From the NCBI GenBank assembly GCA_964360965.1, contig CAYHYM010000006.1:6606-38605 (forward strand): DNA of 32,000 bases, read 5' to 3'. Below are positions 2,803-30,126 of this stretch, piece after piece. The DNA comes from an uncultured Gammaproteobacteria bacterium (GTDB taxonomy: Bacteria > Patescibacteriota > Microgenomatia > Daviesbacterales > UBA10151). Position 1 is the stretch's first letter. Every line of letters begins with the position of its first letter. Below the pieces are notes generated by a model. The model was not told the origin of the DNA. It saw only the letters and a program-made list of their open reading frames with translations, and did not search any database. Made by a program: the position numbers and the translations under genes.

Positions 2803-3833
2803 CTGTCTCTTTCAATTAAAAAATCAGCCATATATGCAAGAAGCTTGGCTAGTCTTTTATCCGGGGTTATTTTGACAATAACCTTTTTGGCCTGATTTAC
2901 ATATTGTAAAGCCTTTTGTCTGGAATAAGCAAGTGAGCCGCTATCAGTAAACACTTTACGCACTGCCTCAAGTCCCCTATTCCCCACATTACCTTTTCCA
3001 TAATATTTATCCAGAATTTTGCGTTGGCTGGGATTAGCCAATTTTGCCGCCTGAGTTATCAACAGGGTATTTTTACCTTCCTCAATATCTGAGGTGGCAG
3101 ACTTCCCCAAAGTTTTCTCATCCCCAAATACCCCCAAAATATCATCCTGAACCTGAAAAGCAATCCCCAAATTCTCTCCAAACTCCTCTAAATTATTAAG
3201 TAACTTTTGACTGCCTCCTGCCAAAATGGCCCCCAGCTGAAGAGGATCAATAATGGTGTAATAAGCAGTTTTGAGCTTGTGGATGATGATCACCTCTTTG
3301 TCTACCCTATCCCCTTTTAGATGAGGCAACTCTACATCTAGAACTTCTCCTAACCCGGTATTTATAACTGTTTGAGCAAAGGCAGATATAGCTCTATTTT
3401 TTCTATCCTCTGGGAAATTAGCTTCACTTATCAACCTTACAGTTAAGAAAAAACCAATATCAGCCAAAGCTATAGTTTGAGAGATGCCATAATGACCTCC
3501 ACCTAACTGTTTGTAAATCGTAGGCTTACCGCGTCTTAAATCACTCTGGTCAATAATATCATCATGAGCTAAAATTGCAGTCTGAAAAATTTCATAGGCT
3601 GCACCAACCTTTATTATCTCACCTCCGAGGTGGTCTTCTCCTATCTCATACCCCAGCTTTACTAAAGTCCCACGCAATCTTTTCCCTCCAGCACAGTTTT
3701 CTATTAAAACTTGGGCTAAAGGAACCAAGGTGGGACTAACTTCCCTTACCTCTTCCAGCCAAATTCTAGAAAACCGTTCAATTTCTTGATCAATCTCCTG
3801 CGCAACATCTTTTAGATAGACTTTAAAATCCAT
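2799..3833 (-). CDS. trans-Polyprenyl diphosphate synthase (geranylgeranyl-type or longer)
   Basis: 344 aa. First Asp-rich motif LAHDDIIDQSDLRRGKPT. The second motif FQVQDDILGVFGDEKTLGK reads DDILG. Non-aromatic Ile/Ala at -4/-5 of motif 1 suggests a C20 or longer product (inference). Confidence 0.85.
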   Translation of the reverse strand: MDFKVYLKDVAQEIDQEIERFSRIWLEEVREVSPTLVPLAQVLIENCAGGKRLRGTLVKLGYEIGEDHLGGEIIKVGAAYEIFQTAILAHDDIIDQSDLRRGKPTIYKQLGGGHYGISQTIALADIGFFLTVRLISEANFPEDRKNRAISAFAQTVINTGLGEVLDVELPHLKGDRVDKEVIIIHKLKTAYYTIIDPLQLGAILAGGSQKLLNNLEEFGENLGIAFQVQDDILGVFGDEKTLGKSATSDIEEGKNTLLITQAAKLANPSQRKILDKYYGKGNVGNRGLEAVRKVFTDSGSLAYSRQKALQYVNQAKKVIVKITPDKRLAKLLAYMADFLIERDR

Positions 3834-6800: not shown

Positions 6801-7577
6801 TTACCTGCCTAGTCTTTTTTCATAACCTTCAAATTGTTTAATTGTTTGAAGAAGTTTTTCTGGAGTTAAGTTAGGAAAAAGGTGAGGCAAAAATATCCAA
6901 GCAGAATTAGCAGTTTGCAGCGGCATGAAACCAGAGGTATGCGGTAGCTCATTTCTATCAACTCCTGTCCTAATGACTAAATCTACTGATGGTTGACCTG
7001 CTGTATCTAAAAAGTGGCCAATCCCCTTACTCTTATCTTGACCATTTAGCAGTAACTGCCTGACTGCCCTATCTATCTCATCTTTACCACCATAGTCTAG
7101 GGCTAAATTAAGATTATGTCTTTGAAAATGAGCAGTGGAGCGCTCTAAATCAGTAATCACTTCAAGTAGATCTTTAGGTAACCTATCTTTGCGCCCTAGA
7201 TGAATAAATCTAGCTCCAGCTTCATACAGCTCCTGCCTAAAATCAGCCCGTGATAAATGCTCCTTAGCTAAACCCATGACAAAACTAGATTGCTTACGAT
7301 CTCTTCTCCAATTATCAGTGGACCAGACCCAAAAAGTTAGGGTGTGAATTCCCCAAACTCTGCCAGCTCTGGCAATACCCTTAATCACTTCTACCCCAGC
7401 CATATGCCCAAGGTATGGCAAAAGGTGCATGTTGTAAGCAGCTCTTCTATTTCCATCGCAGATAATAGCTACATGTCTAGTTTTTTGGGGATCAACTTCA
7501 TATGAAGGGATTTCTGCTTTTTCCCAGGTTGAGGCGATATCATCTGCCCAACCTTGAGCTATTTCAACTCCATACAT
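6801..7577 (-). CDS. Second, divergent cis-prenyltransferase (UppS-family paralogue)
   Basis: 258 aa. HVAIICDGNRRAA, LTFWVWSTDNWRR, ALDYGGKDEI, LVIRTG and C-terminal RLGR. The segment after IRTG (VDRNELPHTSGFMPLQTANSAW) departs from the canonical SGE.RLSNFLLWQ block. Confidence 0.75.
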   Translation of the reverse strand: MYGVEIAQGWADDIASTWEKAEIPSYEVDPQKTRHVAIICDGNRRAAYNMHLLPYLGHMAGVEVIKGIARAGRVWGIHTLTFWVWSTDNWRRDRKQSSFVMGLAKEHLSRADFRQELYEAGARFIHLGRKDRLPKDLLEVITDLERSTAHFQRHNLNLALDYGGKDEIDRAVRQLLLNGQDKSKGIGHFLDTAGQPSVDLVIRTGVDRNELPHTSGFMPLQTANSAWIFLPHLFPNLTPEKLLQTIKQFEGYEKRLGR

Positions 7578-11010: not shown

Positions 11011-12399
11011 TTAATCAAAAAGCCCTAATTGTGGAGCTTCAACTTGCTCCTCTTTAGCCGGATCCACTCCATCCTGCCATATCTTCACCACTCCATAAAC
11101 TCCATCATAGCCTGGGTCAATCACCAAATCTCCTAATCTTGCCTTTTCCACTCCTTCTGCTATTTTTGAGTCGGATATTTTTGTTATTTCAGAAGTTTCA
11201 ATCTTAGTTAATATTTTTAGCTCATTTCCCAATATCTTTGTTAACTTTTTATACTCATTTAATACTTTTTGGCTTGTTACAGAGGACTTTAATGCTTCTG
11301 AAATAATTTGTAAAAAAGGCACCAACATTCTATATCCGGGCCTATTTGCCATTGTTTGGCTTTTTATTACCCCATTCTCCCTGATCACCCCCAACTCACT
11401 AACATCCCTAACTGCAATCTCCTCCACTCTTTCCATCACCCCCACAGTCAAACCCCGACCGCATTTGGGGCAGGTAGCCCCTTTGGTTTTGGTATCCTCA
11501 GGAGAATATTTAATATTGCAATTTCTATGCCCGGTATAATGATACTTCCCTTCTTCAGGATAAAACTCAATAGTTCCTGCCACCTTGTCATCCCCGCGTA
11601 GGCGGGGATCCAATTTCGAACTAGAGTTGTTTAATTGGATTCCTGCATTCGCAGGAATGACGGTAGGGCTTTTAATTGCTCTATATAAACCATAATAGCT
11701 GAACTCTCCTTCTATGACTGTTGCCTCCCTACCCAAATTTGGTAAAGAATGAGCATCAGAAAAAGAAACAATAGATCTATTATCCAACTCCTTTATCCGC
11801 CAATTCATGGCCGGGTCGCTCGAGAGTCCTGTCTCAATTCCATAGATGTAATCTGTCAAATCTTCAAAACAGTCTTCCAAAGAATCATACCCTGATTCTG
11901 AACCAAATATTCCAAACCAGGGAGTCCAGGCATGCGCCGGGATAAAAAGGGTCTTTTCAGATGCTTGCAAAGCTAAACTTAATAAATCTTTGGAAGAAAT
12001 CCCCACAATCGGTCTTCCGTCAGAACCTAAAGTTGCCCTTCTTGATAAGAGGGCTTTTTGAAAAGCTTCAGCTGAAGCAAAATCAGGCATAAAAACCAGA
12101 TTGTGAACTCTTCTTACTCTACCTTTATGAGAATAAATAGAGGCAATCTCCACAGTTAAAACAAACTTGACCTCACTTCCAGCCAAAGGCTGGTCGTCCT
12201 TTGGACGAAAAAACCCTGATCCATCTTCTTTAAGCTGGCTTTTAAGTTCTGCAAACCAGAGAGGGTGTAAAAAATCCCCTGTCCCCAAAAGATCAATTCC
12301 CTTCAGCTTTGCCCACTCTGCTAGGTTCGGAATATTCAATTGTGGCGAACATGCCCTGGAAAACCTGGAATGAATATGCAAATCAGCTACATATGCCAT
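11011..12399 (-). CDS. PHP-domain endonuclease Q-like protein (TIGR00375-type) with zinc ribbon
   Basis: MAYVADLHIHSRFSRA, GTGDFLHPLW, FIPAHAWTPWFGIFGS, SSDPAMNWR, SFSDAHS, IEFYPEEGKYHYTGHR and CPKCGRGLTVGVMERV. The preferred ATG 12397-12399 lies 1 nt after the ligase stop (TAAtATG). The track's TTG at 12432 lies inside the ligase gene. The 75-bp element at 11587-11661 is translated in frame. Confidence 0.7.
   Translation of the reverse strand: MAYVADLHIHSRFSRACSPQLNIPNLAEWAKLKGIDLLGTGDFLHPLWFAELKSQLKEDGSGFFRPKDDQPLAGSEVKFVLTVEIASIYSHKGRVRRVHNLVFMPDFASAEAFQKALLSRRATLGSDGRPIVGISSKDLLSLALQASEKTLFIPAHAWTPWFGIFGSESGYDSLEDCFEDLTDYIYGIETGLSSDPAMNWRIKELDNRSIVSFSDAHSLPNLGREATVIEGEFSYYGLYRAIKSPTVIPANAGIQLNNSSSKLDPRLRGDDKVAGTIEFYPEEGKYHYTGHRNCNIKYSPEDTKTKGATCPKCGRGLTVGVMERVEEIAVRDVSELGVIRENGVIKSQTMANRPGYRMLVPFLQIISEALKSSVTSQKVLNEYKKLTKILGNELKILTKIETSEITKISDSKIAEGVEKARLGDLVIDPGYDGVYGVVKIWQDGVDPAKEEQVEAPQLGLFD
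11587..11661. repeat. 75-bp two-hairpin palindromic element translated within the EndoQ-like gene
   Basis: gtcatccccgcgtaggcggggatccaatttcgaactagagttgtttaattggattcctgcattcgcaggaatgac. 25 codons, VIPANAGIQLNNSSSKLDPRLRGDD. 66/75 identical by hand alignment to 20919-20993. Confidence 0.9.
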
Positions 12400-12400
12400 A

Positions 12401-14170
12401 TTATTTTTGGTATTGTTGATTATACATCTCAATTAACTCTTTAACTGTAGTGGCATCTTCAGCTTTTTTATCAGCCTCACGGAATTTAACTAAACGAGGA
12501 AACCTTAGGGCATATCCAGCCTGTCCTGAGCCTGCCGAAGGAGTTCTATCCATCCCGGCTGTATGATTTGGGGATCTGGTAATTTCATCTGCCAAAACTT
12601 CTATTACAATTTCCGGAGCTATCCAGACAGAAGGAACCAAGATAGCATTAACTCTGGCTGGTTTTTTATCTACCTTGATTTTGTCTGCTTTTTTGTGTAC
12701 CTCCCTCCATTCCTCATCTGTTAAACCTGTGCCAATTTTAGACACTGTCACAAATTCATCTTTTTTATCATCATAAACTCCTACCAATAGTGCCCCGGCA
12801 CCAAAAGCAGACCTCTTTCCTTTTCCAAAAATATATCCTAAAATTACACAATCAATGGTATCTTTTAACTCCCCGCTTGAATGTCTTTTCAGTTTTACCC
12901 AGTTAAAATTCCTGGCCCCTGCCTCATATTTGGAAGTGGGCCTTTTAACAATTAACCCCTCCAAACCTTTAGTGAGCGCATCATCAAAAAGTTCCTGTAT
13001 TCTGTCTGATGAATCCGTAATCTCACCTACTTCTGGAATTAATACTTCATTACCCTTGATTCTTGATTCTAAAAGCTTGATTCTCTCTCTTAATGGAGTA
13101 TCCATTAAAGATTTACCATCCAAATACATCACATCAAATACAAAAGCTTTTAATGGAAGCTTTGCCGCCATTTCCTCAATTCCATATTTGCGACGCCTTT
13201 TAGTGGTCTCCTGAAAAGGTAAAAATTCTTCAGATACCGGATTAAAAGCCAGGGCTTCTGAATCTAAAATTGCAGTTTTTGCTTTTACTTGTGACAAAAC
13301 TCCTTGGATAATATCCGGAAACATGGGGGTAGTTTCCTCTAAATTTCTGGAGAATAACCTAATTTTATCCCCGTCTTTGTGAATCTGTACTCTAAACCCG
13401 TCAAATTTTTGTTGCACATGAGCCTCCCAGCCAAATTTTTCCAGAATTGTTTTTGGATCCGGTAATCTTTCTGCCAATTGTGATCTGATGGGTCGACCTA
13501 CAGTTACATCCAATCCCCGAACTCCCCGAATCCCCCGACTCCACAAAATTTCTCCAATCAAACCTAAATCAGAAACGCGGTTATAAGCAGCCTCAAGAAT
13601 GGGTCGTTTGGCCCTGTCCCGAGCGAATACGAGGGCAAAAGCATCCAAAATTGTCGGGTCACCAATTCCCAATCTTGACACTCCCAAAGGAATCCTGACT
13701 AAATGCTTGGCACCTATTCCGTCTACTTTTTGTAAAAGTCCAGCCAAGCTGGATATTTTCTTTTCCACTGTTCCCTCCCCTGTGGTCTTTGCTATATTCC
13801 TAAGTGTTTCGAATACTTCATTTACTGTCATCCCGAATTTATTTCGGGATCTCTTTTGAGATTCTGAAACAAGTTCAGAATGACGTTCGGCTACCAATCC
13901 TAAATCCCCTATCCTTCCATATTCTTTGAGTACCTGCTCACGTTCTATTCCATAAGTTCTGGCCATGGCAGCTGCCACACTTTTCTCTGCCATGCCAATC
14001 TCTAATGGTTCATAAAATGGGGCCACCCTACCTTGTAGCAAATAACAAACCTTGGCTATCTCATCAGACTTTACTTTAGAAAAAAGCTCAGCCAAAATAT
14101 CAATCAGGACCAGTCTTGATGAGGTTCCTTCAAGTTTTTCAAAATACTCAGTCAGTTTTGCAAATAACAT
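12401..14170 (-). CDS. ATP-dependent DNA ligase (LigI/archaeal type)
   Basis: Adenylation motif QQKFDGFRVQIH, EGLIVK and LRFPRLVKFREADK. N-terminal DNA-binding-domain pattern FAKLTEYFEKLEGTSSRL. The preferred ATG 14168-14170 is preceded by AGGAAAC. The track's GTG at 14200 extends the ORF into a repeat solo arm (peptide SSLRRQGN). Confidence 0.85.
   Translation of the reverse strand: MLFAKLTEYFEKLEGTSSRLVLIDILAELFSKVKSDEIAKVCYLLQGRVAPFYEPLEIGMAEKSVAAAMARTYGIEREQVLKEYGRIGDLGLVAERHSELVSESQKRSRNKFGMTVNEVFETLRNIAKTTGEGTVEKKISSLAGLLQKVDGIGAKHLVRIPLGVSRLGIGDPTILDAFALVFARDRAKRPILEAAYNRVSDLGLIGEILWSRGIRGVRGLDVTVGRPIRSQLAERLPDPKTILEKFGWEAHVQQKFDGFRVQIHKDGDKIRLFSRNLEETTPMFPDIIQGVLSQVKAKTAILDSEALAFNPVSEEFLPFQETTKRRRKYGIEEMAAKLPLKAFVFDVMYLDGKSLMDTPLRERIKLLESRIKGNEVLIPEVGEITDSSDRIQELFDDALTKGLEGLIVKRPTSKYEAGARNFNWVKLKRHSSGELKDTIDCVILGYIFGKGKRSAFGAGALLVGVYDDKKDEFVTVSKIGTGLTDEEWREVHKKADKIKVDKKPARVNAILVPSVWIAPEIVIEVLADEITRSPNHTAGMDRTPSAGSGQAGYALRFPRLVKFREADKKAEDATTVKELIEMYNQQYQK
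12519..12543. repeat. Possible cctgagc...ccgaagg module fragment inside the ligase gene
   Basis: cctgtcctgagcctgccgaaggag resembles cctgagcgaggccgaagg at 21067-21087. It encodes PSAGSGQAG. Confidence 0.35.
13827..13884. repeat. About 58-bp two-hairpin palindromic element translated within the ligase gene
   Basis: gtcatcccgaatttatttcgggatctcttttgagattctgaaacaagttcagaatgac. Same GTCAT...ggatctc/gagattc...ATGAC architecture as 21718-21786. It is read in a different phase (HSELVSESQKRSRNKFGMT). Confidence 0.8.
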
Positions 14171-14177
14171 AAAGTTT

Positions 14178-14198
14178 CCTTGCCTTCGCAGGGACGAC
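14178..14198. repeat. Solo right arm of the 75-bp element in the ligase/GGDEF divergent intergenic region
   Basis: ccttgccttcgcagggacgac matches ccctgcattcgcagggacgac (20973-20993) at 19/21 positions. Confidence 0.65.
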
Positions 14199-19620: not shown

Positions 19621-20271
19621 CTAAATATTTTGCCAAAAAAGATGGGGGGAGTACACAATCCAGTCGTGTCCTTGATCCTTTAGTACTATCAATTTAGACC
19701 TTGGAATGGCTTTTTGTAGTGCTCTACCTTGCCATAAAGAGTTTAAAACATCCTTTTCACCCCACATAATAATGGTGTAGTTTTTAATTTTAGATCCTTG
19801 TTCTTTTAAATCTACTTTAAAGGCATAACGCCCTAGTTTTATATGCATGGGAAGTTTTCTTATAAGATATCCTGAATTGGTGAAAAACTTGACTAACTTC
19901 GTATGCCCCCTGGTGAATAAATTTCGCAGCAAATTATTGGAAAGTTCAAAAATAGTCTCTTGACCATAAACTCCAGCTGAATCTACCAGATATAACTTAT
20001 CAACCATTTCAGGATAGTGCATAGCAAACTCCATGGCCATAGCTCCACCTAAAGAATGTCCTATTAAACTCACCTTATTAAGATTTCTGGCTTTAAGGAA
20101 ACTGACAAACTGATCTATAAAATCATCGATATTGCCAGTAGGGATAATCTCATGGTGATTGGCGACAATCACTTTATAACCCTTGGGGGCACTATCAACT
20201 AACCTTTTATATGATCTCTCACTCCTAGTCCATCCAGGAAGAACAACTAAAATTTCTGACATTTTGGACAA
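19621..20271 (-). CDS. Alpha/beta-fold hydrolase
   Basis: 216 aa. Nucleophile elbow LIGHSLGGAMA and C-terminal GHDW histidine. Confidence 0.7.
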   Translation of the reverse strand: MSKMSEILVVLPGWTRSERSYKRLVDSAPKGYKVIVANHHEIIPTGNIDDFIDQFVSFLKARNLNKVSLIGHSLGGAMAMEFAMHYPEMVDKLYLVDSAGVYGQETIFELSNNLLRNLFTRGHTKLVKFFTNSGYLIRKLPMHIKLGRYAFKVDLKEQGSKIKNYTIIMWGEKDVLNSLWQGRALQKAIPRSKLIVLKDQGHDWIVYSPHLFWQNI

Positions 20272-21215
20272 AAGTATGTTCCCCTTCCTCTCAATTGTAC
20301 CTTTTTAATTTCTGTTCCACAGATCTTGCACGGATGTCTATCTCTACCATAAACAAAAGCATAGTCTAAAAAATAGCCTTTGTGACCCTCAGTATCCACA
20401 AAATGGGCCCTGGTGGAACCACCATGCTTAATACCATCCCTTAGCGCCCTGATCAACCCGTCATACAGTGCTTGAAACTGTTTATCAATCAGATTAACCA
20501 CTTTAGTGCGGGGATCAATTTTGGCATTAAAACAAGCCTCGTTGGCATAAATATTTCCCACTCCGGAAACCACTGTTTGATCCATAATCGCCACTTTCAC
20601 AGGCATATTTTTATGTTTTAAAAGATTTTCTTTTAATACTTGCCAGCTAAATCCTTTTTCCAGGGGCTCTGGCCCTAAGTTTTTTAGATCCTTCGCTTCG
20701 CTCAGGATGACAGTGGGCATCACTTTAATCCAGCCGAAGCGCCGCTGGTCATTAAAATAAAGATGGGATCCATTACTGAAGCTAAAAATAACCCTGGTAT
20801 GGGAATTGGGCATTTTACCCACCATATCAGGAGTTGGATGGCCACCAACAAAACGTTTGCCGTCCTCATATATGAGCTGGCCTGTCATTTTCAGATGAAA
20901 AAGTAAGGTTACCCCAACGTCATTCCCGCGGAGGCGGGAATCCAATTCCGAACTAGAGTTTTCTAATTGGATCCCTGCATTCGCAGGGACGACGTCCACT
21001 CCTATATACTTACCTTTTCTCCAGATATTGAGCACTTTCTTACCCTGTAAGCCCTGAGTGAAGCCCGCCCTGAGCGAGGCCGAAGGGTCGAAGGGTTTAC
21101 CATTTTGATTTAAGAAAGATTTAGCAGAAAGTATTTGAATTTTCTTAATGATTAAACCAACTATTTTCTTTTCTAAACCTAGTTTGATAGTTTCTACTTC
21201 AGGAAGTTCTGGCAT
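20247..21215 (-). CDS. mutM: Formamidopyrimidine-DNA glycosylase (Fpg/MutM) with three repeat-derived in-frame segments
   Basis: MPELPEVETI (the catalytic Pro2 requires the ATG at 21213-21215, not the track's 21227). LGPEP, GVGNIYANEA and zinc finger CKICGTEIKKVQLRGRGTYFCPKCQ. About 50 aa longer than E. coli Fpg as I recall it. Confidence 0.9.
   Translation of the reverse strand: MPELPEVETIKLGLEKKIVGLIIKKIQILSAKSFLNQNGKPFDPSASLRAGFTQGLQGKKVLNIWRKGKYIGVDVVPANAGIQLENSSSELDSRLRGNDVGVTLLFHLKMTGQLIYEDGKRFVGGHPTPDMVGKMPNSHTRVIFSFSNGSHLYFNDQRRFGWIKVMPTVILSEAKDLKNLGPEPLEKGFSWQVLKENLLKHKNMPVKVAIMDQTVVSGVGNIYANEACFNAKIDPRTKVVNLIDKQFQALYDGLIRALRDGIKHGGSTRAHFVDTEGHKGYFLDYAFVYGRDRHPCKICGTEIKKVQLRGRGTYFCPKCQKF
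20686..20711. repeat. 26-bp solo arm (agatccttcgcttcgctcaggatgac) inside fpg
   Basis: Its reverse complement gtcatcctgagcgaagcgaaggatct matches the left arm of 21718-21786. It encodes VILSEAKDL. Confidence 0.7.
20919..20993. repeat. 75-bp two-hairpin palindromic element translated within fpg
   Basis: gtcattcccgcggaggcgggaatccaattccgaactagagttttctaattggatccctgcattcgcagggacgac. 25 codons, VVPANAGIQLENSSSELDSRLRGND. Confidence 0.9.
21052..21095. repeat. ccctgag...gggtcgaaggg module cluster inside fpg
   Basis: ccctgagtg, ccctgagcgagg and gggtcgaaggg are the same modules as in intergenic 22381-22448. It encodes PFDPSASLRAGFTQG. Confidence 0.6.
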
Positions 21216-22371
21216 GTTTTTGGACAAGATCTAAAATCTCTTCCTTAAACCTTTCTTTGGAAAATTTTTGAGATTGCCTTAGGCAGTCTTCAGGTTTAAA
21301 TTTGGCAGGATCAAACTTTTTTAAAGCTGCCATAAGATTGTCTGTTGTTACCGTGCCAGGACCTCCGTAAAGTAAACCAGTCTTACCATCCACCACACTT
21401 TCTAAAAACCCACCAGCCTTTGGGGCTATTACTGGAGTTCCTGTGGCCATACTCTCAACAGGCACTATACCAAAATCCTCATCTTCGGATGCCACAATCA
21501 ATGCTTTGGCATTTTGCAAAAGTCTTACTCTCTCCTGATCAGACACCCATCCTAAAAATTCAATATTTTTGAACCCCGCGGAGCCTTGGCGAAGTGGGGC
21601 AATTTCCGGTCCATCCCCGGCAACCTTAAGTGGTAAACCCAACTTCCCACAAGCTTCCACCACTACATCCACTCCCTTTCCCCTTACTAGTCTACTTAAA
21701 ACTAAGAAATATTTTTTGTCATCCTGAGGCTTTGCCGAAGGATCTCCAGGTTTAATCTTGAGATTCTTCACGGAGTTTAGAATGACAGATATATCCACAG
21801 GTGGATATATCATCACCGAATCCCTTCTGTAAAATTTTTTAATTCTTTGGGCCACATTTTTTGAGTTAGCCACCAAAATATCAGGCCTCTGAGAGGTTTC
21901 AAAATCATAAATTCGCAAAATATGGTTGGCCAGTTCCCCAAACACCCTGGTCCACCAGTGTTTTTTATAGTTAAAAGAAGTTGCATACCCATATAAATAA
22001 CGCGGTGGAGTATGGATATAGCTGATATGCAGGCTTTCTGGTTTGGTAATAACAGCCTTGGCAAAATAGGTGTTACAAGAGGAAATCACCAAGTCATATT
22101 CAGATAGATCAAAACTTTCAAACATCATTGGCGCAAATAATCTGAAGGGAGAAAGAAGTTGATTTGCAAATGGAAATTTTTGCAAACCTGATGTTCTTAT
22201 ATCCCAGTCTTTAAATCTCTTTCCATTTTCCCCCATTGCATCCAAATTTACATAAGCTGTATACAAAGGAGCATCCGGCCAAATCTCACGTAAGGCTTCC
22301 AAAACCCTCTCAGCGCCACCATACTCTTTTAAATAGTCATGTATCAAAGCTACTTTTAAATTTTTATCCAT
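21199..22371 (-). CDS. GT4-family (GT-B fold) glycosyltransferase
   Basis: 390 aa. KVALIHDYL...YGGAERV and the C-terminal E-x7-E region SEDEDFGIVPVESMATGTPVIA. The 69-bp element at 21718-21786 is translated in frame. Confidence 0.8.
   Translation of the reverse strand: MDKNLKVALIHDYLKEYGGAERVLEALREIWPDAPLYTAYVNLDAMGENGKRFKDWDIRTSGLQKFPFANQLLSPFRLFAPMMFESFDLSEYDLVISSCNTYFAKAVITKPESLHISYIHTPPRYLYGYATSFNYKKHWWTRVFGELANHILRIYDFETSQRPDILVANSKNVAQRIKKFYRRDSVMIYPPVDISVILNSVKNLKIKPGDPSAKPQDDKKYFLVLSRLVRGKGVDVVVEACGKLGLPLKVAGDGPEIAPLRQGSAGFKNIEFLGWVSDQERVRLLQNAKALIVASEDEDFGIVPVESMATGTPVIAPKAGGFLESVVDGKTGLLYGGPGTVTTDNLMAALKKFDPAKFKPEDCLRQSQKFSKERFKEEILDLVQKHARTS
21718..21786. repeat. 69-bp palindromic element translated within the GT4 gene
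   Basis: gtcatcctgaggctttgccgaaggatctccaggtttaatcttgagattcttcacggagtttagaatgac. 23 codons, VILNSVKNLKIKPGDPSAKPQDD. Confidence 0.85.
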
Positions 22372-22453: not shown

Positions 22454-23047
22454 TTATGATATCATTTTTTTTCGCCATTTAGTAAGCCATAAATAGATCA
22501 GTCCATAAAGTATGGTCCCTATTACTCCTACTACCAAATCATTGACCACATCAAAAGTTCCTCTGACATTGTGAGTTTTTAAAAATACATCAGTGTAATA
22601 TTCTTGGGCTTCAAGTAACAGATGAATAATATTTGCCAGCCCCACCCCACCCCAAAAACTCCAGCCGAAAGCACCCAAAAGTACTGCTGCTAAAGCAGCT
22701 GTGGAATGAAAATGAGGGATTAAATCAAAGTAAAAGTAAGAATCATATAAATTAAAAGAGTTCCCGGCCATATCCAGCCAGAAAATGGATAAATAAAGAT
22801 TATCCCACCAAAATGGATACTTGTGGTGAGCGAACTTGTGGTGAGAGTAACCGAACCAGTCGAACCATTTTTTCTTCCAAAAATACAATACAGGAAAAAG
22901 TAAACTTAAAGTGATCACAATAATAAAATTTCTAATGGGAATAGCTTTGCCGGCAAATCTGGGATCATCCGGAAAAAGCAAAACTTCTCCTAAAAAGTAA
23001 AGGATAGAAAGCCTGATGACGATGTTAATTATTAATCCCCAGTTCAT
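22454..23047 (-). CDS. Integral membrane protein, function unknown
   Basis: 197 aa with several hydrophobic helices. Contains a 47-bp repeat segment encoding GYSHHKFAHHKY. Confidence 0.6.
   Translation of the reverse strand: MNWGLIINIVIRLSILYFLGEVLLFPDDPRFAGKAIPIRNFIIVITLSLLFPVLYFWKKKWFDWFGYSHHKFAHHKYPFWWDNLYLSIFWLDMAGNSFNLYDSYFYFDLIPHFHSTAALAAVLLGAFGWSFWGGVGLANIIHLLLEAQEYYTDVFLKTHNVRGTFDVVNDLVVGVIGTILYGLIYLWLTKWRKKMIS
22820..22867. repeat. 47-bp cttgtggtgagc...gtcgaacc element inside the membrane-protein gene
   Basis: 39/47 identical by hand alignment to the reverse complement of 30060-30106. The first 20 nt are identical. Confidence 0.8.
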
Positions 23048-25144: not shown

Positions 25145-27351
25145 AAGGGTTTCATTTCTCCCCAGTTTGGGCCTATTTTCAGGTCCACAACCACTGGCAC
25201 AGATAACTTTATAGCATTTTCCATTTTGTCTTTGACCATCAAGGCCACTTTGTGGACTTGTGGTGAGCTTGTCGAACCATCACATTCAAATAACAATTCA
25301 TCATGCACTTGCAGGATCATTGAACAAGATTGCTTTGCTTCGCTCGCAATGACAGAGGAGATTTCCACCATAGCTTTTTTAATAATGTCAGCTTGGGTTC
25401 CCTGTACTGGGTGATTAATAGCCATTCTCTCCCCTGCTGCCTTGATCATTCTATTGCTAGTTTTAAGTTCTGGGATATATCTTTTTCTTCCCCAAATAGT
25501 TTCTACATAGCCATTCTCATATCCAAATTCCAAAGTTTTTTGCATCCATTCTCGAACCTTTGAGAATTGTTCAAAGTATTCAGTAATATAAGTTCTTGCT
25601 TCCTCAAATGAAATTTTTAGCTGACGGGACAAAGCATGTGGACCTTGGCCATACAATGTTGCAAAGTTCATTGTTTTCCCCACCATTCTTTGCTGTTTGC
25701 TTACTTTATCAATAGGTACTTTAAAAATCTTTGAAGCTGTTGCTGCATGAATATCCAAACCTTCATCGAATGCTCTTTTTAAATTAGTATCATCAGCCAG
25801 ATGAGCCATAATCCTCAGCTCAATCTGGGAATAATCTGCTGCCAAAATTATCTTTCCTTTTGGAGCAAGGAAGGCTTTTCTAATTTCCCCACCCTCCTCC
25901 CCTTTCACGGGAATATTTTGTAAATTAGGATTTTGTGAGGAAAGTCTACCTGTAGCAGCGCCTTCAACATTAAAAGTGGAATGTATCCGACCATCCTGAC
26001 CCACTGATTTAGGCAGAGCATCAATATAGGTGGATACCAGTTTAAAAAGCTGGCGATATTCCAAAAGCATCGGCACCACAGGATGGGCCGTTGCCAATTC
26101 ATGTAGTGTTTCCTCATCTGTTGATCTACCGGTTTTGGTTTTTCTAAAAACAGGTAAGTTTAGCTCATCAAAAAGCACTTCTGATAATTGCTTTGGACTG
26201 TTTAAATTAATCTGATGGCCTATTTTTGAGTAAATTTCTTTCTCAAGTTTTTGTAGTCTGCCTTTTAAATCTTTCCCTAATTTGCTTAAAAACTTCAAAT
26301 CTATTAAAACTCCGGTTTTAGACATTTTCTGTAGGACTTTTTCCACTTCTTGATCTAAATTTGTTGTTTTGTCATTCTGATCCTGAGCATTAGCCGAAGG
26401 AGAAGAATCTCTAGATTTTAAGTCTTGAGATCCTTCACTAGCGTTCAGGATGACAGAAGCACCTGGGATCCTTCCAATCAAACTTCTAAACTCCAGCTCT
26501 TCAAACAACTTAATCACCTCCTGTTTATCAAAATCGTGCACTTCACATGCTTTTAAATCCAACCTAATTGGGGCTTTCAAATCCAAAGTTGCCAGTTTTT
26601 TACTCATCACAGCTTGCTCTACTCCCTCAGCTAGTAGAGTTTGCAACCTAGTAGGCAGAGTTTTTAAATTTTTTGGTTGATAGATTTTTTCCACTGAACC
26701 AAATTGTTGGATTAACTTGGTAGCCCAAGTTTCCCCTATCCCATTCACCCCAGGGATGTTATCAGATTGATCTCCAGCTAGGCCCTTATAATCTATTAAC
26801 TTACTTGGTTCAAAACCATATCTTGTCACAAACTCGCTGACTCCATAAAGCCCCACATCTTGGAGAGTTTTCCTAGGCATTAACACCTTTATATTTTTAT
26901 CAATTAACTGCATAATATCTCTATCCCCCGTGATCACTATCACCTCGAGGTTTTTTTGTTTTTTGGCTTGGGTAGCTAAAGTACCTATCAAATCATCAGC
27001 TTCATATCCAGAAAGACTAAATTGAGGAATATTAAAAGCTTTGGCTACTTGATAAACTCTGTCAAATTGAGAAGATAAACCATCATCAGCTGGACCACGG
27101 GTTGCTTTATACTGAGTGTAGGCTTGATGTCTAAAGGTAGGTCCTTTTTCGTCCCAAGTTAAGCCTAAAAAGTCTGGCTTCAGATCAGCTAAAGCTTTTA
27201 AAATCATGGAGGAAAAGCCATAAACCGCATTAACCAACTCACCCTTGGAGGTGGTAAAAGGAGGAGTGGCATGATAGGCCCTGTGCAACAGAGCGTTACC
27301 ATCAATCAGAACCAGTCTTCTTGTCCTGAGCAAAGCCCGATTCATGCTCAA
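25141..27351 (-). CDS. polA: DNA polymerase I: 5'-nuclease domain fused directly to the polymerase domain, with no 3'-5' exonuclease-like domain
   Basis: 736 aa. LIDGNALLHRAYHA and GDRDIMQL (5' nuclease). DYSQIELRIMAH, NFATLYG and QVHDELLFE (pol motifs A, B, C). The junction linker is encoded by the 84-bp element at 26371-26454. Confidence 0.9.
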   Translation of the reverse strand: MSMNRALLRTRRLVLIDGNALLHRAYHATPPFTTSKGELVNAVYGFSSMILKALADLKPDFLGLTWDEKGPTFRHQAYTQYKATRGPADDGLSSQFDRVYQVAKAFNIPQFSLSGYEADDLIGTLATQAKKQKNLEVIVITGDRDIMQLIDKNIKVLMPRKTLQDVGLYGVSEFVTRYGFEPSKLIDYKGLAGDQSDNIPGVNGIGETWATKLIQQFGSVEKIYQPKNLKTLPTRLQTLLAEGVEQAVMSKKLATLDLKAPIRLDLKACEVHDFDKQEVIKLFEELEFRSLIGRIPGASVILNASEGSQDLKSRDSSPSANAQDQNDKTTNLDQEVEKVLQKMSKTGVLIDLKFLSKLGKDLKGRLQKLEKEIYSKIGHQINLNSPKQLSEVLFDELNLPVFRKTKTGRSTDEETLHELATAHPVVPMLLEYRQLFKLVSTYIDALPKSVGQDGRIHSTFNVEGAATGRLSSQNPNLQNIPVKGEEGGEIRKAFLAPKGKIILAADYSQIELRIMAHLADDTNLKRAFDEGLDIHAATASKIFKVPIDKVSKQQRMVGKTMNFATLYGQGPHALSRQLKISFEEARTYITEYFEQFSKVREWMQKTLEFGYENGYVETIWGRKRYIPELKTSNRMIKAAGERMAINHPVQGTQADIIKKAMVEISSVIASEAKQSCSMILQVHDELLFECDGSTSSPQVHKVALMVKDKMENAIKLSVPVVVDLKIGPNWGEMKPL
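25257..25278. repeat. Short cttgtggtgagc-ttgtcgaacc module inside polA
   Basis: Shares both ends with the 47-bp element. It encodes GSTSSPQV, in the segment after QVHDELLFE. Confidence 0.55.
25328..25353. repeat. 26-bp solo arm (gattgctttgcttcgctcgcaatgac) inside polA
   Basis: Its reverse complement gtcattgcgagcgaagcaaagcaatc matches the arms of the 117-bp element. It encodes VIASEAKQS, just before QVHDE. Confidence 0.7.
26371..26454. repeat. 84-bp palindromic element translated within polA at the nuclease/polymerase junction
   Basis: gtcattctgatcctgagcattagccgaaggagaagaatctctagattttaagtcttgagatccttcactagcgttcaggatgac. 28 codons, VILNASEGSQDLKSRDSSPSANAQDQND. Its arms are inverted relative to the GT4 copy. 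Confidence 0.85.
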
Positions 27352-28217: not shown

Positions 28218-30059
28218 TCAACTTTTTTTCTTTCCCACCAGTTTTTCAAATTCATCAGTATCCAGAGTTTCTTTTTCAAGCAGGGTTTTGGCCACTTTAT
28301 CAAGCTTGACTCTTTCCATCTTTAAGATTTTTTGAGCTTGTTTATAACAGGCATCAATAATCTTTTTTATTTCCACATCTATTTTTGATTGCATTGATTC
28401 GGAAACATCCCCTCCTTCATCCGACATCCTGGGCCAAAGACCAAACATGGACCGGGACTTGATATTAATCGGCCCCAAAGAAGACATGCCATACTCCACC
28501 ACCATTTCTCTGGCAATGGAGGTGGCAATCTCAATGTCATTGGCAGCCCCGGTTGATAAATCCCCAAATACCATCTCCTCTGCTGCCCGACCACCCAAAG
28601 CTGTTGATATTTGCTCCAACAGTCTTGATTTGGTTTCATTTGACCTGTCCTCTGTTGGAGGAAACATGGTGTGACCCCCGGATATACCCCTGGCCACTAT
28701 GGTGATTCTATGAACCGGATCAATATTGGGCAAGTGGTGCCCTACAATGGCATGACCTGCCTCATGATAGGCTGCCAATTTTCTGTCTTTTTCAGTCTGC
28801 ATCCTTTTTCGCTGTGGCCCCAGTTTAACTTTAGTGGCAGCCTCTTCCAAATCTTTAGCCTCGATTGCTTTTTTGCCCTCCCGAGCTGCTAAAATTGCTG
28901 CTTCATTTAACATGTTACTCAGATCCGCTCCGGAAAAACCAACTGTACGTCTGGCCAGTCTCTCGATGTCAACATCATCTGTAAAGGGTTTACCCTTCAT
29001 ATGAAGTTTGATGATATCTTTTCGCTCCTCAATATCCGGCATATTTAAAACCACCCGCCTGTCAAATCTGCCTGGACGGACCAGGGCCGGATCCAGCAGA
29101 TCTGGCCTGTTGGTGGCTGCCAGCACTATCACGCTCTCATTAGGAGTAAATCCATCCATCTCCACTAGTATCTGATTTAGGGTTTGCTCTCTCTCATCAT
29201 GCCCTCCTGACATGCCAAAACCGCGCATTCTGCCAATTGATTCAATCTCATCTATAAAAATAATGGCTGGAGCGCTCTTTTTGGCTTGAACAAACATATC
29301 ACGAACGCGGGAAGCACCAACACCTACCAACATTTCCATAAACTCAGATCCGGCAATTGAATAAAATGGCACTCCGGCTTCTCCTGCTACGGCGCGCGAA
29401 ATTAGCGTTTTTCCACATCCGGGTGGACCCACCAAAAGTACTCCTTTGGGCGTTCTGGCCCCAATCTCTTTATACTTTGCGGGACTTTTTAAAAAATCAA
29501 CTATCTCTTCAAGTTCCTTTTTGGCCTCATCTGCTCCTGCCACATCGGAAAATTTAATCTGTGGAGCATCTTTGGTAAAAAGGCGAGCCCTGGATTGGCC
29601 AAAAGAAAAAATTCCCCCTCCTGCTTCTTTGGCGTTTCTGAAGATTAAAAAGAAAAATCCCACCATCAAAAGAATTGGTAAGATCGCCCCTAAAACATTA
29701 AGCCAGGCCTCTTGAAAAGAAATATCTTTAATCTCAACTGTGGTTAATTTGGGATCAACTCCTGAGGAATCCAGGATTTTATAAATTGACTCACCCGCCT
29801 CTTTTCTGGACATTAGTTTTTCATCAGAATCTTTGATTTGAGCAGATACTTTATCTCCTTCCAAAGATAATTTCTCCACCTTTCCCTCTTTGATCATATT
29901 TATAATCTGTGAAATGGGTACCTCATTTGAAGGAATTGAGGAGCCTGACAATTGATAAAAAAAGATCAAGGAAGCAACAGCAATAAGTGCATAAACAGCC
30001 ACTCCTTTAAGGATGGATATGATCCGACCATTAAATTTTTTTTTATGGTTATTGGCCAT
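28218..30059 (-). CDS. ftsH: ATP-dependent zinc metalloprotease FtsH
   Basis: 613 aa. Two TM helices, Walker [10 protein letters not shown], Walker B IIFIDEID-like [32 protein letters not shown], and zinc site HEAGHA. Confidence 0.95.
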
Positions 30060-30106
30060 GGTTCGACTACTTCGACTATGCTCAGTACAAGTTCGCTCAC
30101 CACAAG
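30060..30106. repeat. 47-bp element abutting the ftsH start codon (5' leader)
   Basis: ggttcgactacttcgactatgctcagtacaagttcgctcaccacaag. Its reverse complement matches 22820-22867. Confidence 0.8.
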
Positions 30107-30126
30107 TAAAAGAATACTAACATAAA

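Follow-up and report, generated by a model that had tools for sequence, protein, structure and literature searches.

Hairpin doublets resembling Ssn nuclease targets lie in frame within EndoQ and Fpg genes of a Daviesbacteria-type bacterium and keep their stems in orthologues

The DNA analysed here is a 32-kb stretch of contig CAYHYM010000006.1 (the window), obtained from the 0.1-µm fraction of Hainich groundwater, and the subject of this study is a 75-bp element, composed of two hairpins, that is present in it twice. Each copy lies within a minus strand gene for DNA repair. The first host gene (11011..12399, minus strand) encodes a protein of the endonuclease Q family (EndoQ), which matches PDB entries 5zb8 and 7k30 with an E value of about 1e-44 (2e-44 to Pyrococcus EndoQ), and the second (20247..21215, minus strand) encodes Fpg/MutM, as identified by Pfam and PDB matches. 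The proteins closest to these hosts are from Candidatus Daviesbacteria. Copy 1 of the hairpin doublet (11587..11661, plus strand; 99.5 bits) is read in frame in the EndoQ gene as VIPANAGIQLNNSSSKLDPRLRGDD, and copy 2 (20919..20993, plus strand; 94.8 bits) is read in frame in the Fpg gene as VVPANAGIQLENSSSELDSRLRGND. In copy 1, hairpin 1 spans 11590..11609 on the plus strand (ATCCCCGC-GTAG-GCGGGGAT) and hairpin 2 spans 11639..11658 on the same strand (ATTCCTGC-ATTC-GCAGGAAT), while in copy 2 hairpin 2 is located at 20971..20990, also on the plus strand (ATCCCTGC-ATTC-GCAGGGAC). Searches of the window with ARAGORN and Rfam revealed no tRNA-like or known RNA.

An earlier note on this DNA had aligned the two copies by hand and counted 66 identities over 75 positions with no gaps, and re-alignment of 11587-11661 with 20919-20993 gave the same result. 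The nine positions of the element that differ are 6, 13, 21, 30, 43, 45, 55, 70, and 72. As had been described, four of these make up two compensated pairs, 6:21 within local hairpin 1, which is C:G in copy 1 and T:A in copy 2, and 55:70 within local hairpin 2, which is T:A in copy 1 and C:G in copy 2; a fifth difference, at position 13, is indeed located in loop 1. Positions 30, 43, and 45 fall in the centre of the element. The ninth difference, T72C, did not figure in that discussion and affects the outermost pair, A53:T72, of the 8-bp stem 2. In copy 2 this pair is weakened to A:C on the plus strand, which the minus strand has as G:T. A 25-nt probe of hairpin 1, allowing up to three mismatches, found only the two copies in the window and nothing in 100 shuffles. 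When all four strands were folded as single-stranded DNA (ssDNA), the minimum free energy structure consisted of the two terminal hairpins and a short central stem, with z-scores of -4.9 to -6.5. With RNA folding parameters, a single long hairpin is about as stable as the local hairpins, and folding energy alone thus leaves the choice between the local and long structures undecided.

Each window copy forms a 25-residue in-frame insert in its host protein. Of the six frames of the element, all but two contain stops, and both window copies use the same open frame; an example of a peptide spanning the junction is ...GVDVVPANAGIQ... The EndoQ insert sits between parts that match residues 5-225 and 237-390 of Pyrococcus EndoQ, the latter beginning with CxxC pairs, and residues 245-278 of the query correspond to Pyrococcus EndoQ residues 226-236. 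By our reading of this alignment, the insert would be placed between the PHP domain (the residues 5-225 part) and the zinc finger (the 237-390 part). In Fpg, the insert is in the N-terminal domain between the segments 'GxD(L/V)' and 'xTLLFHLKM', a position that we read as a probable turn between two strands. An AlphaFold model of Fpg computed from a 20-sequence alignment had a mean predicted local distance difference test score of 38; it was unusable and played no role in placing the insert.

Protein alignments revealed that the Fpg site is empty in the Daviesbacteria orthologues P0019, P0025, P0026, and P0032 and that the EndoQ site is empty in the Daviesbacteria orthologues P0137, P0139, P0141, P0161, and P0171. 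The orthologues with empty sites, at about 65-70% protein identity, are too diverged to define the exact nucleotide boundaries of the insertions. In the closest relatives both sites are occupied by the same element, and in other relatives they are occupied by quite different GTCAT...ATGAC doublet families, read as VVLNEVKDL..., VILSERSESKDL..., VIASGAKQS..., and RHAELVSASQ... The filling of one site by different doublets suggests, from the sequences, an insertion hot spot or doublet-for-doublet replacement. In-frame residence extends well beyond the window. Pfam domains flank or span the insert in DNA polymerase I (PolA), Rho, TsaD, the ATP synthase gamma subunit, polyprenyl synthase, methionyl-tRNA formyltransferase (Fmt), PrmC, a Wzy-like membrane protein, and an orthologue of Fpg, and in low-GC family members open frames of 290-766 residues run across the element. 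By our count, the frame and orientation VIPANAGIQ...RLRGDD is used by 11 of 12 independent verified in-frame copies, and the other open frame, SFPRR...WIPAFAGMT, is found only in the group of Wzy-like membrane proteins. Both window copies share one orientation; the genes of this region are almost all on the minus strand and the GC skew is negative throughout.

The wider family was collected from metagenomes using a pattern that specified no more than ATCCAATT...AATTGGAT in the centre and a portion of hairpin 2's 5' arm, with hairpin 1 left free. The scan yielded 77 loci with 48 unique family elements, 29 of which are exactly 75 nt long, and covariation was evaluated in an alignment of 25 gap-free 75-nt members. 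In this alignment the local hairpins are paired in 98.7% of cells and six pairs are changed on both sides, and their covariation score is 0.168 compared to 0.076 for shuffled alignments, a level reached by none of 500 shuffles; when the partners of the local hairpins are slid along, less than 50% of cells are paired. A covariance model built from the same alignment recovered additional copies independently of the search pattern, and the resulting alignment is 97.2% paired with double changes at 19 of the 25 pairs, a figure in which both strands are included so that the changes are not independent. Thus, in the larger alignment that had been proposed for examining compensation, the stem positions of the local hairpins vary together and beyond the shuffled expectation. 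A single long hairpin or cruciform formed by the two halves of the element was considered and rejected, as its covariation score is 0.057 compared to 0.075 for shuffles, 499 of 500 of which reach the observed score. Its pairing covers 91.2% of cells with two pairs changed on both sides, and pairs 6:70 and 9:67 are unpaired in 16 and 19 of the 25 sequences, respectively. Hairpins 1 and 2 differ from one another at two stem pairs in both of the subfamilies described below, so that the long hairpin is mismatched.

Among close relatives the family falls into two subfamilies, each with many members: A, with C6:G21 and T55:A70, and B, with T6:A21 and C55:G70. As copy 1 is of type A and copy 2 is of type B, the four compensated differences between them are inherited subfamily markers. 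The earlier note was right that the pairs are compensated; the changes did not, however, arise inside the EndoQ and Fpg genes and were brought there by separate, pre-existing subfamilies. Paralogous copies sometimes have near-identical centres and stems that are several compensated pairs apart (for example, loci L128 and L160), and doublets mix different hairpin types modularly, which together argue that the hairpin is an evolving or exchangeable module. The family is also common between genes and is found in both orientations relative to host genes. A probe with CCAATTNCGAACTAGAGTT against species-representative genomes retrieved one true relative (L124) and one chance match (L123), and a concatenated 50-residue query of the insert peptides returned only 12 short open reading frames (ORFs) and missed the window's own proteins. 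Intergenic family copies are annotated in public protein sets as short hypothetical proteins (P0001-P0012; MIVIPANAGIQLEESSSEMDPRLRGDD..., ...VIPAKAGIQL...LDSRLRGNDG), which are spurious ORFs. Palindromic segments of about 21-45 nt are nested in the 4-nt loops of hairpin 1 or 2 in L170 (1611-1706), L135 (811-915), L124 (2934-3031), and L205 (3482-3589), and the 21-nt insert of L170 has a copy of the loop ATTC on either side; hairpin loops seem to be preferred entry points for nested palindromes.

Viral contigs, scanned with GTCRTYCCCGCNNNNGCGGGRAT, a pattern that permitted all four combinations at pair 6:21, gave at least 120 loci. Among the matches listed, 176 distinct hairpins have T:A at this pair in 148 cases, C:G in 24, T:G in three, and C:A in one, and many of the loci hold inverted pairs, some of which resemble Neisseria mosaic arrays. 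Neither the central-region probe AATTNCGAACTAGAGTTNNNNAATT nor the doublet pattern had any match in the viral contigs.

Three insertions are present at orthologous positions in several genomes: the EndoQ copy in the window, L205, and L206, the Fpg copy in the window, L159, and L202, all of which share the private derived change T72C, and the copy in the Wzy-like gene in L200 and L184. In every comparison the orthologous elements are 87-95% identical, compared to 64-81% for the flanking host DNA. The 50 stem and terminal bases, read off the printed element alignments, display no differences between orthologous insertions. All differences between orthologous elements are confined to the loops and the centre, and the centre diverges at about the rate of the host. 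The host genes differ at 56-68% of their four-fold degenerate sites (53/79, 36/58, 88/130, 71/126, and 78/119), whereas inside the element the differing four-fold sites number 1/13, 2/13, 2/14, 1/14, 0/12, 2/12, and 2/12. Fisher tests for six comparisons gave p = 7e-5, 4e-3, 1e-5, 1e-4, 1e-3, and 8e-4, a pooled test on two independent pairs gave p = 1e-9, and the four-fold sites of the element are 5-8 times more conserved than those of the host genes. As the former are conserved while the latter diverge, the constraint is on the nucleotides and not on the peptide. A comparison of synonymous sites at the stems had been suggested in the earlier note, and its outcome, the family covariation, and the unchanged orthologous stems, as three independent tests, bear out the central proposal made there, that the nucleic acid hairpin is maintained and not only the encoded peptide. 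Our data show that the stems are under constraint as DNA or RNA hairpins inside coding sequence.

The hairpins can be identified with a known motif. The 28-nt Neisseria Transformation Sequence (NTS), with the consensus CGTCATTCCCGCGMAVGCGGGAATCYRG, is counted among a broader class, the Ssn-related motifs (SRM; Chenal et al., Nat Commun 2025, PMC11893778), and includes the older dRS3 repeat, ATTCCC-N8-GGGAAT (PMC1797815). SsnA is a single-domain GIY-YIG nuclease that binds the SRM as an ssDNA hairpin and cuts a few bases upstream, binding neither RNA nor double-stranded DNA, and ssn genes are typically flanked by the motif in the manner of an insertion sequence (PMC11893778). The main text of that paper has no mention of Patescibacteria or 'Candidatus' lineages. 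In copy 2, the unit formed by a C, hairpin 1, and ATCCAA (20918..20945, plus strand) is two substitutions from the 28-nt NTS consensus, which has no match in 30 shuffles even when four substitutions are allowed, and its core is an exact match to dRS3. NTS membership as its authors define it allows one mismatch, and the window units lie outside this limit, the best having the two substitutions just described and the minus strand unit at 11635 having four. A BLAST search of a plasmid collection found the 20918-20945 unit in Neisseria gonorrhoeae, Tistrella, Azospirillum, and others, with identities of 91-97%. By eye, the dRS3 pattern ATTCCCNNNNNNNNGGGAAT is exactly fitted by hairpin 1 of copy 2 at 20922-20941 (ATTCCCGCGGAGGCGGGAAT) and is not fitted by the other three hairpins of the two copies (ATCCCC..., ATTCCT..., and ATCCCT...).

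The window-type units share with NTS/SRM the hairpin core and 5' flank (CGTCATTCCCGCG..GCGGGAATCC) and an oriented, unpaired head. Each unit is built from a pyrimidine followed by GTCAT, a 4-nt loop between the two arms of an 8-bp stem, and, after the stem, ATCC. The GTC(A/G)T head is invariant, GTCAT is preceded by a pyrimidine at 75 of 76 element ends, as it is in NTS, and the unpaired 5' head orients each hairpin as it does in SRM. The unpaired 5' YGTCAT is conserved at both ends of the element and hence on opposite strands.

Small GIY-YIG genes flanked by such hairpins, candidates for the single-domain Ssn family (cd10448), are present in contigs from related bacteria of the candidate phyla radiation (CPR). 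Using as tblastn queries the GIY-YIG ORFs that adjoin canonical hairpins elsewhere, homologues of 43-60% identity were found in three related loci (L181, L124, and L129). In L181 the ssn homologue (2966-3283) is abutted by hairpins on both sides (2954 on the plus strand and 3284 on the minus strand), and a doublet is located 300 bp away. L181 has the same sequence as L138 over their shared stretch, and L138 is from a 169-kb contig that also holds the in-frame PrmC copy (L191). In L124, which is from Candidatus Daviesbacteria, a doublet lies just downstream of the ssn homologue (6801-7088), and what we read in the sequence as a putative further hairpin is at the end of the upstream topoisomerase gene. 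At about 95 residues, the Ssn-like ORFs of L181 and L124 consist purely of the PF01541 domain; NCBIfam gave no informative match for the Ssn-like ORFs. Target-site duplications of 2, 3, 4, and 5 bp were present at 1, 2, 0, and 0 of 38 elements, which is the level expected by chance.

The explanation that we favour, and consider somewhat better than even, is that the element is a non-autonomous doublet of Ssn-target hairpins that makes no target-site duplication, is tolerated at permissive in-frame sites, and has its stems kept by protein recognition of the ssDNA hairpin. The 75-bp copy would be a non-autonomous repeat of two inverted NTS/SRM-type hairpin units, equivalent to a hairpin-ssn-hairpin cassette that is reduced to its hairpin ends and lacks the gene, and would relate to this cassette as a miniature element relates to its parent insertion sequence. 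Such doublets may have entered protein-coding genes in the Daviesbacteria-type (CPR) lineage, surviving where the 25 extra residues fall at positions that vary in length among orthologues, probably a linker or surface loop by our reading, and only when a stop-free frame, of which there are two, matches the phase of the gene, so that the doublets would be translated. The stems would be held by selection on nucleotide sequence and self-pairing, most likely as a protein-recognised ssDNA hairpin, and not via the peptide. Of the functions offered in the earlier note, a substrate for ssDNA transposition or recombination fits best, since the motif is the target of Ssn nucleases, and a role in mRNA lacks specific support. 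What our data show is the identity and anatomy of the element; recognition of the copies by an Ssn enzyme that the source genome would encode, their spread via ssDNA, and the host's reason for keeping the stems intact are inferences.

Several observations weigh against this explanation. Ssn has been demonstrated only to cut, with no transposition demonstrated for it (PMC11893778), and only 2% of Neisseria NTS lie inside genes. The published degenerate SRM pattern, itself made by hand, HGTCWYN(0-2)YYVSBRHN(0-5)WNVSBRGN(0-2)RNCYNB has no strict match in the window, and with one substitution it matches only 11586-11613, hairpin 1 of copy 1, while shuffles average 1.8 matches; parsed by hand, hairpin 1 of copy 1 misses the pattern at the final B and hairpin 1 of copy 2 misses it at the H in the loop. 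No ssn gene was found by tblastn in the window, which says little as the window is only 32 kb of a genome. Finally, a selfish, immobile copy is not expected to keep its stems for so long, and a host-level or mechanistic constraint is therefore left unexplained.

A related explanation, which we put forward tentatively as a possible one, is that the CPR doublets are GIY-YIG-dependent mobile or exchangeable modules that home to hairpin sites and are kept in essential genes by selection at the level of the host, where they might serve, for example, as ssDNA processing sites during DNA uptake, recombination, or replication. If true, this would explain why the Fpg, EndoQ, and ligase positions (the last described below) are empty in some orthologues and differently filled in others, and also why the stems are unchanged while the host genes are near synonymous saturation.

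Alternatively, the hairpins might be kept for a role in mRNA, as a ribosome pause, RNase site, or stabiliser, with the likeness to Ssn targets being only historical. Conservation of the stems at synonymous sites within genes that are transcribed and translated, the formation of the same hairpins expected in RNA (local structures of -26 to -32 kcal/mol), and the presence of G:U-compatible stem variants in the family alignments are all consistent with such a role. We nevertheless regard it as unlikely: the family is also common between genes and has both orientations relative to its hosts, the unpaired YGTCAT that orients an Ssn target is conserved on opposite strands, orthologues preserve the stem sequence and not merely its pairing, SsnA does not bind RNA (PMC11893778), and no Rfam family matches.

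It is also conceivable, although we consider it rather improbable, that there is no selection on structure and that template switching in quasi-palindromes or short-tract gene conversion among copies, by which one arm is copied onto the other, generates the compensated pairs and perfect stems. Near-perfect pairing (97-99% of cells), copies such as L128 and L160 that differ by several fully compensated pairs around near-identical centres, and the nested palindromic insertions in hairpin loops all fit such a mutational origin. Correction of one arm by the other would, however, allow paired drift, yet six orthologous comparisons contain no stem changes where 56-68% of host four-fold sites differ. 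Gene conversion from other copies should homogenise the centre as well, but the divergence of the centre is close to that of the host, and the Fpg orthologues have retained their private variant T72C.

A classical MITE (a transposable element of the miniature inverted-repeat type), moved by a DDE transposase that recognises GTCAT...ATGAC terminal inverted repeats, would likewise be short, have inverted termini, occur in many copies, and lack coding capacity, but appears very improbable given that the 38 elements have no 2-5 bp target-site duplication beyond chance, that the gene adjoining such hairpins is a GIY-YIG nuclease and not a transposase, and that doublets mix hairpin types modularly. 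That the 25-residue peptide itself is selected, as a short protein module recruited by several enzymes, is scarcely credible: the peptide is well conserved among hosts (VIPANAGIQL..S.SELD.RLRG.D), but synonymous stem sites are as conserved as other stem positions, the Wzy-like host reads the element in a second frame and orientation, many copies lie between genes or yield only short spurious ORFs, and other orthologues have quite different doublet peptides at the same position.

The element resembles several known systems in part. In contrast to NTS/SRM, the window-type units are tight inverted doublets of a fixed 75 bp, and they lie in frame inside essential genes, where Neisseria NTS are rarely intragenic. 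As in the Neisseria dRS3 arrangement and the Neisseria intergenic mosaic elements (NIMEs), repeat units flank short variable spacers, but NIMEs are long intergenic arrays near surface-protein genes, whereas the window family forms isolated doublets in coding sequence. Rickettsia palindromic elements (RPEs) are palindromic non-coding repeats that lie in frame in unrelated housekeeping genes and are translated as extra peptide segments (PMC10969869). The window family is also palindromic, in frame in unrelated genes, and compatible with the host protein, a likeness of habit; RPEs differ in being about 100-150 bp, in occurring in Alphaproteobacteria, and in having no established enzyme partner. 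With repetitive extragenic palindromic (REP) sequences, their REPIN doublets and RAYT enzymes, and with IS200/IS605 elements, the family shares two inverted hairpins, the absence of target-site duplication, presumed recognition as an ssDNA hairpin, and compensated stems. REPs, however, are extragenic and have a GTAG-type head and a Y1 HUH transposase, whereas the window family has the head GTCAT, its associated gene encodes a GIY-YIG nuclease, many copies are intragenic, and the GIY-YIG gene is the only associated gene seen (no systematic RAYT search was made). Classical MITEs such as Correia elements are also short, with inverted ends and many copies, and are sometimes fused in frame to genes; they duplicate their target sites and are descended from DDE insertion sequences, and neither feature was found for the window family.

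The association of a hairpin motif with a nuclease (2025) and in-frame palindromic repeats in Rickettsia (PMC10969869) are already known. Our search of the literature for the insert peptides found nothing, and the searched literature contains no description of NTS/SRM doublets of fixed length that have colonised essential CPR genes, of protein positions being occupied repeatedly by different hairpin families, or of stems shown to be conserved at synonymous sites when orthologous insertions are compared. The family links, in reduced CPR genomes, three things that have been described separately, the Ssn-hairpin system, REPIN/MITE-like doublets, and Rickettsia-style in-frame palindromes, and its orthologous insertions, with invariant stems and a diverging centre, loops, and host gene, make a clean natural experiment. 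In practical terms, alignments of CPR protein families are inflated and broken up by the inserts, which also give rise to spurious small ORFs (VIPAKAGIQ..., ...RLRGNDG), and the family together with the Daviesbacteria Ssn homologues offers natural substrates and enzymes for ssDNA tools. If RPEs prove to carry the same motif, there would also be a candidate enzyme for the 25-year-old question of how in-frame palindromes spread.

Additional hairpins are present elsewhere in the window. A third doublet, of another subfamily, lies in frame in an ATP-dependent DNA ligase gene (13827..13884, plus strand; GTCATCCCGAA-TTTA-TTTCGGGAT ... ATTCTGAAACAAGTTCAGAATGAC), with the stems CCCGAA/TTCGGG and TTCTGAA/TTCAGAA; this site is empty in the orthologue L205 and holds a single hairpin in L206. 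A lone, slightly degenerate hairpin of the same type is located just upstream of the ligase start codon (14176..14198, minus strand; GTCGTCCCTGCGAAGGCAAGGAA). In Fpg, a candidate lone hairpin (20688..20711, minus strand; GTCATCCTGAGCGAAGCGAAGGAT), read as VILSEAKDL, is shared only by P0025 and has two stem mismatches, making it individually uncertain, and in a glycosyltransferase gene an uncertain candidate for a degenerate 69-bp doublet (21718..21786, plus strand) has GTCAT...ATGAC ends and two mismatches per hairpin. Together with 25329-25353 and 26371-26454, these latter two are the sites of GTCAT-headed imperfect hairpins in the genes for Fpg, glycosyltransferase, and DNA polymerase I, with two stem mismatches each. 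At this stringency there are 38 imperfect GTCAT candidates in the window compared to 20 in shuffles, and single cases are uncertain.

Some in-frame extras are not of the GTCAT type. In Fpg, at an estimated position of about 21058-21100, there is the segment 'KPFDPSASLRAGF', where orthologues have nothing or 'GQPFDFAQGLRG', and the C-terminal part of the ligase, at an estimated 12520-12560, has the segment 'MDRTPSAGSGQAG', which is absent from L205. From their sequences, these extras look like a second family of repeat-derived inserts. The window also contains a pair of 51-nt inverted repeats (22818-22868 and 30058-30108) that are 84% complementary, 7.2 kb apart, and unrelated in sequence to the hairpin family. 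Finally, a 49-nt direct repeat (1036-1084 and 1324-1372; 90% identical, spacing 288 nt) is located inside the ORF at 241-2073 and probably reflects an internal repeat of the protein.

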